Shown: positions 1,391 to 3,366, numbered from the stretch's first letter. The stretch is 64,000 bases of DNA from Elusimicrobiota bacterium (GCA_036574205.1 JAINCQ010000040.1:45428-109427), one strand, 5' to 3'. Made by a program: numbers and translations. Notes: generated from the letters alone by a model not told the origin.

Positions 1391-2809
1391 ATGATAACAA
1401 TTAATAATTTAAACCCAAATTTAAGAAAAGCGCAATATGCCGTGCGTGGCAAAATACTTCAACGGGCTTATGAACTTGAAAAAAAAGGGAGAAAAATAAT
1501 TTATTGCAATATAGGAAATCCTCAGGCTTTAAAACAAAAACCTATTACATATGTCAGGCAACTTTTAGCTCTTACTGAATACCCATCTCTAATAGACAAT
1601 CAAAAAAGAGGACTTTTTTTTAATGATGTAATAAAAAAAGCAAAACAAATATTGAAAGAAAATCCAAATGGACTTGGAGCCTATACCCAAAGCGAAGGAA
1701 TGCCCTTTATTAGAAAATCTGTGGCTGAATTTATAAAAAAGCGTGATACAATAGATGCTACTCCAGAGAGGATAATTTTAACAGATGGGGCTTCAAAAGG
1801 AATTCAGGCAGTTTTTACCCTTTTAATAAAAAATTCAAACTCAGGCTTTATGATCCCGATTCCTCAGTATCCCCTTTATAGCGCTACAATAGCATTATAT
1901 GGAGCAAAACAAATAAATTACTATTTAGACGAAGATAAACACTGGGAACTTAATGAGAATGAACTAAAATCAAGCATTAATGAGGCAGTTAAAAATAAAA
2001 TAGAACCAGTTGCTATAGTGGTTATAAATCCAGGCAATCCAACAGGGGCTGTTCTTTCAAAAGAAAACATAAAAATGATAATAAACTTTGCAAGGAAATA
2101 TAATCTTTCAATACTGGCAGATGAAGTTTATCAAGAAAATATATATAGTTCCAAACATTCCTTTCATTCTTTTGCTAAAGTAATGTCGGAGATGAAAATA
2201 ACAGACGTTCCATTATTCAGTTTTCATTCAACCTCAAAAGGCTTTTTTGGTGAATGTGGACATAGAGGTGGATATCTTGAAACAAGAAATGTAGGAGATG
2301 ATGTATATTATGAAATAATAAAACTTCAATCCATAGGGCTTTGCGCAAATACAGCAGGTCAAATTGTTACTTATGCAATGGTCAATCCACCTCAAAAAAA
2401 TGAAGATAGTTATGAGTTATACATGAAAGAGAAAAATTCAATACTTTCAGAACTTAAGAAAAAAGCTGAAATACTGGGGGAGGAATTAAATAAAATAGAA
2501 GGGGTTTCCCTTAAAATACCATATGGTGCAATGTATGCTTTTGTAAAAATAGACTTACCCCAACCAAAGGATATTAATTTTAAAAATATGACTCAAAAAG
2601 AGATTGTTGAGTATGAATCAAAAAGAGATTTTGATTACTGCCTTAATCTGCTTGAAGAAACAGGCATATGCGTGGTCCCGGGGTCTGGATTTGGTCAGAA
2701 ACCTCATACATATCACTTCAGAACTACATTTTTGCCGCCATTAGAGGAAATAAAGTATTTTGTAAAAAAATTTAAAAACTTTCACTTTAATTATTTAAAA
2801 AAAATATAA
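1391..2809 (+). CDS. PLP-dependent class I aminotransferase, eukaryote-type alanine aminotransferase (AlaAT/GPT/GGAT-like)
   Basis: YAVRG, CNIGNPQ..QKPI, INPGNPTG, ADEVYQ, FHSTSKG (PLP Lys), GECGHRGGY, VVPGSGFGQ..TYHFRTT. Confidence 0.9.
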   Translation: MITINNLNPNLRKAQYAVRGKILQRAYELEKKGRKIIYCNIGNPQALKQKPITYVRQLLALTEYPSLIDNQKRGLFFNDVIKKAKQILKENPNGLGAYTQSEGMPFIRKSVAEFIKKRDTIDATPERIILTDGASKGIQAVFTLLIKNSNSGFMIPIPQYPLYSATIALYGAKQINYYLDEDKHWELNENELKSSINEAVKNKIEPVAIVVINPGNPTGAVLSKENIKMIINFARKYNLSILADEVYQENIYSSKHSFHSFAKVMSEMKITDVPLFSFHSTSKGFFGECGHRGGYLETRNVGDDVYYEIIKLQSIGLCANTAGQIVTYAMVNPPQKNEDSYELYMKEKNSILSELKKKAEILGEELNKIEGVSLKIPYGAMYAFVKIDLPQPKDINFKNMTQKEIVEYESKRDFDYCLNLLEETGICVVPGSGFGQKPHTYHFRTTFLPPLEEIKYFVKKFKNFHFNYLKKI

Positions 2810-2845
2810 CAAATTAGTTTCTAAATAAGGTAAAATTTATTTAAT

Positions 2846-2933
2846 GGGCTGGTGGCGGAATTGGTAGACGCGACGGACTTAAAATCCGTTGGCTGATTAA
2901 ACAGCCGTGCGGGTTCGAGTCCCGCCCTGCCCA
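2846..2933 (+). tRNA. trnL: tRNA-Leu (anticodon UAA), long variable arm, CCA not encoded
   Basis: Acceptor GGGCTGG/CCTGCCC (one U-U mismatch), D-arm GGCGGAATTGGTAGACGC, anticodon arm ACGGA-CTTAAAA-TCCGT, T-arm GCGGG-TTCGAGT-CCCGC, discriminator A. Confidence 0.97.
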
Positions 2934-2934
2934 C

Positions 2935-3174
2935 TGCTGGTACTAAGTCATGGCGGTAAGCCATGACGTGGGTGAGGACTGCCTTTAGAGCGAAACCTCA
3001 AATGGTTTTGCGTGCAGTCCGCAAGGCCGCAGTTCGCCCTGGGCATACAGGCGAACGAGGCGGGGTCGCGCAAAGCCCGCCAGGCTTATGCGTGACTCGA
3101 AAGCCCGCAGCAAAACTTGGGCAATACAGTTTTGCGAGGGGCGGCCCGCAAAAAATTTTGCGGTTAGCAAAATT
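2935..3174 (+). ncRNA. Unidentified GC-rich, highly structured element directly 3' of tRNA-Leu (candidate ncRNA or MITE-like repeat)
   Basis: At least 7 stems: 2947-54/2960-67, 2976-82/3014-20, 3025-30/3141-46, 3032-38/3050-56, 3060-72/3089-3108, 3110-17/3128-35, 3154-61/3167-74. Confidence 0.55.
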
Positions 3175-3225
3175 TATTTGTGGGAGAATTCCTTTGACAT
3201 ATTAAAATCTCTTCCCCCTTAACTC

Positions 3226-3260
3226 TTCTCACCCTAACCATCTCCAAAAAGGAGAGGGGA
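3226..3260 (+). repeat. Degenerate REP-like palindrome of the CCCTCACCCTAACCCTCTCC..GGAGAGGG type
   Basis: TTCTCACCCTAACCATCTCC-AAAAA-GGAGAGGGGA; TCTCC/GGAGA hairpin. Confidence 0.5.
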
Positions 3261-3366
3261 TATGGCAGTTAAACCGTCTAAGGAAGATAAAATCAGTTTT
3301 TCTTTGGCTTAAGAAAACAATTATCCACAGTTTAATTATGGCCGTGGAAAATTAGTGGATGTTGTT

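Follow-up and report, generated by a model that had tools for sequence, protein, structure and literature searches.

What is the block of some 240 nt of GC-rich, almost fully paired DNA that stands directly behind a tRNA-Leu gene in the AT-rich genome of an Elusimicrobiota bacterium? The window analysed here, a stretch of 64,000 nucleotides (GCA_036574205.1, JAINCQ010000040.1:45428-109427; the genome is called G000 below), carried an initial annotation, made from the sequence alone, that offered two answers, an undescribed non-coding RNA released by tRNA 3' processing or a non-autonomous structured mobile repeat. Its description of the block was accurate in several respects. The element starts one base past the discriminator of tRNA-Leu(UAA) (tRNA end at 2933/2934), and GC content is 0.62 in 2901-3100 vs about 0.3 in the flanks. 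The two look-alike hairpins lie exactly at 3027-3060 and 3105-3139, and they do represent a duplicated module, the 3' half of what we call module A and the 5' half of module B being homologous hairpins. Comparison with other copies redrew the remaining boundaries (Table 1).

Table 1. Parts of the element copy behind tRNA-Leu(UAA) and its surroundings, with positions counted from the first nucleotide of the window
Feature	Position	Strand	Remarks
tRNA-Leu(UAA), no encoded CCA	2846..2933	+	Rfam tRNA 59.6 bits; ARAGORN 2846-2934
'pre' module	2935..2969	+	leader of 13 nt 2935-2947; hairpin 2948-2966 (7 bp, 5-nt loop); 3 linker bases
anti-T, 5' part (complement of tRNA positions 61-63)	2970..2972	+	severed from the 3' part by module A
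module A, 122-nt four-helix element within the anti-T	2973..3094	+	nhmmer match 2975-3096
anti-T, 3' part (complement of tRNA positions 54-60, T-loop)	3095..3101	+	
module B core	3102..3185	+	nhmmer match from 3094
degenerate 16-nt segment	3186..3201	+	occupies the site of the exact tRNA 3'-end copy in other units
dispersed REP-like repeats, unrelated to the tRNA-linked element	3202..3300	.	56 BLAST pieces

Module A (2973-3094) includes the first of the two hairpins together with the 'central hairpin' of the initial annotation, and in the module B core the second hairpin is followed by a long 3' hairpin, rich in AU (3145-3184), whose GC clamp covaries. The end that had been placed at 3174 therefore moves, as module B reaches 3185 and is followed by the degenerate segment 3186-3201 and then by unrelated repeats. 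That segment has no match to tRNA-Leu(UAA), and the same pseudo-repeat is common to four other loci. Likewise, the helix proposed to close the whole structure (3025-3030 with 3141-3146) links modules that can occur apart: at least 13 units have a B but no A, and in these the 3' partner of the proposed helix pairs inside the long hairpin of B. The loop of the B hairpin is not constant among copies or across species, which weakens the suggestion of 'two equivalent binding loops'. A similar GC-closed loop of 5 nt is found in the 'pre' hairpin and the B 3' hairpin. Two open reading frames run over the element (2963-3205 on the + strand, 80 codons, and 2985-3170 on the - strand, 61 codons), neither with a Pfam match. 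The region 3202-3300 is patched together from other REP-like repeats that contain small GC-rich hairpins, occur on both strands genome-wide and are not bound to tRNAs, and the tRNA-Leu(UAA) itself has one non-canonical acceptor-stem pair in the Rfam alignment.

The element is not confined to this locus. A 246-nt query returned 46 BLAST pieces in its own assembly (1.85 Mb, 43 contigs), and three modules could be read from the copies: 'pre', A (about 122 nt, present 0, 1 or 2 times) and B (about 85 nt). Profile HMMs found 27 matches to A and 32 to B in G000, 59 modules in all, of which 49 are no more than 800 nt downstream of a tRNA 3' end and share, without exception, the strand of that tRNA; positions that near a tRNA 3' end make up only 0.93% of the strand-specific positions of the genome. 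The occupied tRNAs are 22 of the 43 in the ARAGORN set and serve many different amino acids. Nine of the ten unlinked modules abut contig ends, with at most 263 nt of contig left upstream, and the tenth lies behind two restriction-modification genes on a 3-kb contig, so that no module in G000 is demonstrably free of a tRNA. Linkage to tRNA genes, as well as orientation, is thus strict, and it extends to five related genomes, where 23 of 26 matches to B are found on the 3' side of a tRNA, in its orientation, with no antisense case; these matches are not 26 independent sites, since some share a locus, and the other three have no tRNA in the locus, one of them standing at a contig start. The mobile repeat of the initial annotation gains support from the 59 modules, as well as from the differences in site occupancy and the tandem accretion described below; it is no MITE or REP scattered at random, 49 of 59 modules lying behind tRNAs on one strand. 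The 3-kb contig (C30, 3008 bp) carries a DNA methyltransferase-like ORF and a second ORF, named by eye as a likely restriction-modification pair, and is bracketed by copies of the element plus a copy of the 3' end of tRNA-Asn, which suggests that larger cargo may also sit in the arrays.

The folded structure is conserved and specific to one strand. For 2935-3180, the + strand reaches a folding energy of -118.9 kcal/mol (z = -6.9; none of 200 shuffles folds as well), in line with the near-complete pairing first noticed in the window, and the - strand is weaker (-100 kcal/mol, z = -5.05). Across copies the stems change while the pairing is kept, as had been proposed from the two hairpins of the window. 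In an alignment of 26 copies of module A (21 from G000 and 5 from other genera), the cells of the 36 consensus pairs comprise 835 Watson-Crick, 69 G.U, 9 A.C and 16 other combinations, and 21 of the 36 pairs show at least two Watson-Crick types. The short unit (pre + B, 27 copies) gives a similar picture, with 38 pairs, 911 Watson-Crick, 64 G.U, 11 A.C and 33 other cells, and at least two Watson-Crick types at 24 pairs. Canonical cells amount to 97% in module A and 96% in the short unit overall, and to 96.5% and 94.7%, respectively, at pairs varying on both sides; when partners were shuffled, the latter values fell to 81% and 76%, and none of 1000 shufflings reached those observed. Sliding the 3' partner by 1-3 columns left only 29-52% canonical cells. 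Two positions of module A are G.U in 25 of 26 and in 26 of 26 copies, and these near-invariant pairs fix the folding strand, an argument that the initial annotation had made from the window copy. The structure is therefore selected on one strand, and the favoured strand in G000 is that of the tRNA. The 'pre' module, found behind at least 20 tRNAs, follows the same rule, its hairpin stems differing by locus with pairing kept.

Two further features are matched to the individual tRNA. Directly after module B stands a direct repeat of the 3'-terminal 17-18 nt of the tRNA, which begins at T-loop position 56/57 and ends with the discriminator. Additionally, the 10 nt before the constant start of B, which we call the anti-T, are the reverse complement of positions 54-63 of the cognate tRNA, spanning the T-loop and three T-stem bases. 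In the RNAalifold prediction the anti-T and the opening 7 nt of the repeat downstream form a 7-bp helix, which closes module B. Allowing at most 1 mismatch in either feature (anti-T in the first 130 nt, repeat of 57-73 within 700 nt), 13 of the 22 occupied tRNAs of G000 have an unbroken anti-T, 13 the repeat and 11 both; none of the 21 empty tRNAs has either. Behind the seven occupied tRNAs that lack both features, the first unit is always a long one whose anti-T is split by module A. The window copy is one of these, and once module A is removed its anti-T (2970-2972 plus 3095-3101) is the complement of positions 54-63 of tRNA-Leu(UAA), like the unbroken anti-T of the ortholog in the sister species G001. 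Among 31 proximal units from six genomes, the complement of cognate positions 54-64 is perfect (11/11) in 12 units and reaches 10 in 15, 9 in 2, 8 in 1 and 0 in 1, the last probably a case of a misplaced T-loop. When the pairing of anti-T with tRNA was shuffled, none of 20000 trials reached the observed mean, a result that is strong but is not a proper probability because the 31 units are related copies. Complementarity extends to the variable positions 57, 59 and 63 (28, 30 and 27 of the 31 units) and ends at position 64 (15 of the 31). In the relatives, 19 of the 23 tRNA-linked B matches are followed by another copy of a 13-mer from the tRNA end, and the end of B abuts position 57 at no fewer than 13 loci in several species. 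The GC-rich genera of the family have the same layout (pre, anti-T, cargo and tRNA-end copy) with other cargo sequences, in examples read by eye. The start of the duplicated piece varies with the cargo, being 57 for B units, 49 at tRNA-Gly(CCC) and about 62-64 beside module A in other genera. At tRNA-Gly(CCC) (G000:C31:34792-34862) two tandem units of 56 nt, each made of a 32-nt insert and a copy of tRNA positions 49-73, fill the 112 nt 3' of the gene and precede the usual element.

Occupancy of sites differs between species. At the aminotransferase and tRNA-Leu(UAA) locus, a genome of another genus (G010) is empty, with unique AT-rich DNA directly behind the tRNA; G001, a sister species of the same genus, has a short unit (pre + B) with an exact 17-nt repeat of the tRNA end; and G000, in the window, has the long unit. 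An orthologous site that is empty, short or long depending on the genome indicates that units come and go. G001 has units behind tRNA-Pro(GGG), Met, Val(CAC), Val(TAC), Arg(GCG) and Arg(CCT), all six of which are empty in G000. Where two units stand behind one tRNA in G000 (9 loci, by reading), the short one is always proximal and the long one distal, and distal repeats and units are more often decayed. Copying has occurred locally, as identical variants of 'pre' and B within some loci imply duplication in place, as well as between loci, as implied by a unit behind tRNA-Leu(CAA) that has the end-repeat of tRNA-Leu(GAG). The cores beside exact repeats are only 77-94% identical, and such repeats could reflect selection or gene conversion instead of recent insertion. 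The only sequencing run that holds the window consists of hot-spring DNA metagenome contigs, which break in the repeat, one of them with a back-joint from another copy; no excised form, circle or population-level empty site was seen in these contigs.

By BLAST, the element family is confined to one family of Elusimicrobiota. Thirteen of 24 other genomes of that family gave matches, compared with none of 16 genomes in two sister families, and in a phylum sample of 301 genomes 11 matched (G000 included), all from the same family, with none among 279 elsewhere. A degenerate pattern of module A found 71 loci in GTDB, taking one genome per species, of which 67 come from MAGs titled Elusimicrobia, Elusimicrobiota, Elusimicrobiales or Elusimicrobiaceae and 4 from assemblies titled 'bacterium'. 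Only 18 of these A-like cores have a tRNA at most 400 nt upstream (6 in the same sense, 12 antisense), and 53 have no tRNA within 600 nt, with A nested in larger hairpin-like repeats. Module A is thus not strictly bound to tRNAs, given that 53 of 71 cores are tRNA-free and 12 of the 18 linked ones are antisense. The strand favoured by its fold is often antisense to the nearest tRNA in the GC-rich genera, which makes the fold of A independent of tRNA read-through. Absent from Rfam and with compensatory changes across genera of Elusimicrobiales, module A is a candidate new RNA or DNA motif. Recurrent 'proteins' beside the A-like cores of the 71 public loci were discarded as mere translations of the repeat itself. 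In these public Elusimicrobiales MAG loci (L051-L118), from GC-rich relatives, the A-like core occupies the middle of larger elements, the left and right flanks are long imperfect inverted repeats, and several sub-families share flanks within one genome.

On balance we favour, with moderate confidence, the interpretation that positions 2935-3185 of the window are an old composite copy from a family of small, ORF-less, non-autonomous elements that reside at the 3' ends of tRNA genes. The basic unit is about 110 nt, composed of the 'pre' hairpin, the 10-nt anti-T and module B, followed by the 17-18-nt direct copy of tRNA positions 57-73, and new units would be added next to the tRNA, pushing older ones downstream. 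In the window copy, module A would have landed inside the anti-T, and the terminal repeat would have decayed or been replaced. Movement may proceed via a single-stranded folded intermediate, either ssDNA or RNA, that recognises the T-loop region, and two routes can be envisaged. In one, the element would include the tRNA-proximal copy of 57-73 and insert in the T-loop between positions 56 and 57, so that the tRNA gene is restored by the element while its native end is displaced and survives as the repeat downstream, following the classical logic of attachment sites; within the folded single strand the anti-T would then pair with the 5' end of the element itself. In the other, the element would start past the discriminator and duplicate 17 bp of its target, with the anti-T acting as a guide to the T-loop. 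The sequences fit both alike. Transfer from one tRNA to a different one should be hard for an element that brings along the 3' end of a particular tRNA, which is a difficulty for the former, and the latter would need an unusually long duplication; target duplications of 17-18 bp are unusual for DDE transposases. The enzyme that mobilises the units is probably supplied in trans or by the host. Since the copies lie on the strand of the tRNA, they are also probably transcribed as tRNA trailers; the first answer of the initial annotation, an RNA freed by tRNA 3' processing, may hold as well, the copies being folded on the transcribed strand.

A bolder version of the mobile-element reading, which we regard as unlikely, is that the units are a guide-bearing mobile element, or the domesticated descendant of one, whose folded RNA or ssDNA pairs its 10-nt anti-T with the exposed T-loop region, in either the gene or the transcript of a tRNA, and is installed precisely at the 3' end by host enzymes only, copying 17 nt of the target, with module A as a new structured RNA or DNA class. 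In such an element module A would be a catalytic or protein-recruiting scaffold. The principle of targeting may itself be new, for which we see a small but real chance.

Searches of RNA models and of the gene content of G000 bear on what might move the units. Rfam at the gathering score returned tRNA as the only credible match in the window, and only tRNA was returned for 2780-3350 at E values up to 10; in five loci, with G000, G001, G022, G021 and G010 as sources, no family beyond tRNA was found. The models so covered include tmRNA, RNase P, SRP and 6S RNA, ribozymes, group II introns, HEARO and the IS605-orfB motifs. This agrees with the initial annotation, which had seen no hallmarks of tmRNA, RNase P or SRP RNA. 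A function resembling RNase P or a T-box was set aside, there being no model match and an RNase P RNA elsewhere (G000 has a standard one on another contig). A role of the B 3' hairpin as a terminator was rejected as it has no U-tract, and a retroviral-type primer-binding site was rejected as the repeat has the same sense as the tRNA. A scan for promoters and terminators found nothing in or beside the element, and BLAST against phage and plasmid collections gave no match. Among candidate enzymes, RVT_1, TnpB and IS110 (PF01548) have no match in G000, which is 95% complete; no phage-type integrase was found there, the Phage_integrase family being represented by two Xer-sized tyrosine recombinase genes only (about 300 aa), far from the units. 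An all-against-all comparison of the ORFs of G000 found no transposase tied to the units, and none of its multi-copy transposases is related to them. Y1_Tnp does not track the units over 41 genomes of the family: it occurs in G000 and has no match in G001, G010 and G014, all of which carry units. Three RAYT-like Y1 transposase genes were noted in G000 (C7:33384-34088, C7:37276-37686 and C36:32498-32905), and the one at C7:37276 is flanked by two identical copies of a 27-nt REP hairpin that recurs elsewhere in the genome. The sole Cas1 of G000 belongs to a type II CRISPR-Cas locus at about 91.3-96.6 kb of contig C19 (L048 7350-12630), with a Cas9-sized ORF of 1034 aa, Cas1, Cas2 and an array of about 11 repeats of 36 nt.

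The units resemble several known systems in part. Like tRNA-integrating islands, prophages and CIMEs, they lodge at tRNA genes, leave the tRNA intact, accrete in tandem and have as their boundary a direct repeat that spans the tRNA from its T-loop to its 3' end, a repeat of 57-73 beside an intact tRNA being found at 13 of the 22 occupied tRNAs and in 19 of 23 tRNA-linked matches in the relatives. Unlike those elements, they are only 110-350 nt long, have no integrase, are homologous at 22 tRNAs of one genome and carry an internal complement of the T-loop region, a feature of which the portions of the literature consulted hold no description; no ORF of a unit has a Pfam match, and the only Phage_integrase genes are distant. 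As with MITEs and REP/REPIN sequences, the units are short, ORF-less, multi-copy, intergenic and hairpin-rich, and they break short-read assemblies. However, they are not dispersed, 49 of 59 modules standing behind tRNAs on one strand. No terminal inverted repeats of the MITE type were seen at unit ends, a repeat search of 2800-3300 giving internal arms only; the flanking repeat, unlike that of a MITE, is 17-18 nt of the tRNA end, and no related autonomous IS was found in G000. Nor do they behave as REP or REPIN partners of a RAYT, as the RAYT-like genes of G000 are flanked by a different REP and Y1 is missing from three unit-bearing genomes. Derivatives of IS200/IS605 share with the units strand-specific hairpins near both ends and an internal sequence that pairs with the insertion site, and the junction at T-loop position 56/57 fits, in one possible reading, insertion 3' of a fixed short word. 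IS200/IS605 elements leave no flanking repeat and use guides of 4-5 nt, whereas the units have 10 nt of complementarity and a 17-nt repeat, and a Y1 transposase does not co-occur with them. A structured scaffold with a short target-complementary sequence is also the principle of group II introns (EBS/IBS) and of the IS110 bridge RNA, but G000 has no RVT_1 or IS110 recombinase (PF01548) and there is no Rfam intron match; to our knowledge, neither of these systems makes a 17-nt target duplication. Casposons and CRISPR repeats make long target duplications, sometimes at tRNA 3' ends, and new units enter beside a fixed 'leader', and the units are similar in their long repeat, in their residence at tRNA 3' ends and in their probable growth next to a fixed end. 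The hallmarks of casposons are a Cas1 casposase, terminal inverted repeats and a duplication of 14-15 bp, whereas the units have neither terminal inverted repeats nor a polymerase gene, and the only Cas1 of G000 sits in a type II CRISPR-Cas9 locus with 36-nt repeats. Taken together, these comparisons point to a non-autonomous mobile repeat targeting tRNA genes as the known kind, with a way of homing to them that is not described in the portions of the literature consulted, where neither tRNA-linked structured repeats of this sort nor repeats of Elusimicrobia appear.

As no enzyme was identified, an origin in replication or repair and a host function as a tRNA trailer have to be weighed as rivals of the mobile-element reading. 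According to the latter, the units would serve the host as trailers that are co-transcribed with the tRNA and freed by 3' processing, the anti-T and the tRNA-end copy offering other partners for pairing, by which the folding or processing of the tRNA is adjusted, the tRNA is protected, or a stable structured RNA with a role of its own is produced. Much would be accounted for in this manner: the co-orientation of all 49 tRNA-linked modules with their tRNA, a fold and G.U pairs that favour the transcribed strand, an anti-T and a repeat matched to each tRNA with the predicted 7-bp helix between them closing module B, an architecture kept across the genera of the family, GC-rich ones included, and a high GC content in a hot-spring genome of 30% GC, which in such AT-rich genomes is typical of structured RNAs. 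Nevertheless, a trailer serving the host would hardly be expected to have such patchy occupancy (22 of the 43 tRNAs in G000, different ones in G001, and an orthologous site in G010 that has no unit), tandem stacking with distal decay, or seven occupied tRNAs, that of the window included, with a split anti-T and no intact repeat, and in other genera the folding strand of module A is the one antisense to the tRNA. We therefore consider it improbable that this is their role. Less probable still is an enzyme-free spread by template switching during replication and gene conversion at tRNA genes, for which the near-palindromic T-arm and the hairpins of the element would be the seeds, with correction of imperfect inverted repeats matching the anti-T to the neighbouring tRNA. 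It would agree with searches that found no candidate enzyme, with the clear copying between loci and local tandem duplication, and with the variable start of the duplicated tRNA piece according to cargo (49, 57 or about 62-64); yet the junctions are highly regular, the end of B falling at position 57 in at least 13 loci of several species, the same 110-nt unit stands behind unrelated tRNAs, and template switching leaves the arrival of 'pre' exactly past the discriminator unexplained.

The direct repeats also invite the idea that the units are attachment-site scars of integrase-borne islands or prophages once present in each tRNA gene. Repeats from the T-loop to the 3' end are reportedly the classical signature of tRNA-integrating elements, and the 3-kb restriction-modification contig, bracketed by units and a copy of the tRNA-Asn end, has the appearance of such cargo. 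The units are, however, 110-350 nt long, homologous at 22 different tRNAs and of the same form across species, and there is neither a phage-type integrase in G000 nor a match in the phage and plasmid collections, so that this origin seems very improbable. Last, a stand-alone gene at this single locus, either for a novel non-coding RNA or for a small protein encoded by one of the two ORFs over the element, could claim the strong fold and open frames of 80 and 61 codons; it is contradicted by the 59 modules in the genome and by the separate occurrence of the modules, neither ORF has a Pfam match, and variation between copies keeps base pairs and not reading frames, which leaves it hardly credible.

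If the favoured reading of the units as non-autonomous mobile elements is true, half of the tRNA genes of this organism carry a small structured passenger that fits its tRNA in two respects, by complementarity to the T-loop region and by a copy of the 3' end. The combination suggests that base pairing to the most conserved hairpin in biology does the targeting, with no recombinase that could be recognised. Behind this might lie an insertion chemistry of a new kind, or host enzymes of tRNA handling or repair put to a new use. The tRNA precursors of a thermophile may also gain long structured trailers from the units. They also have practical consequences, as they create spurious ORFs and, since many contigs of G000 end in units, break assemblies at tRNA genes. 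Another tRNA gene of G000, tRNA-Ala(GGC), adjoins an IS256-type (Mutator family) transposase gene (G000:C7:100596-101654), of which a second, partial copy lies at the start of contig C35.
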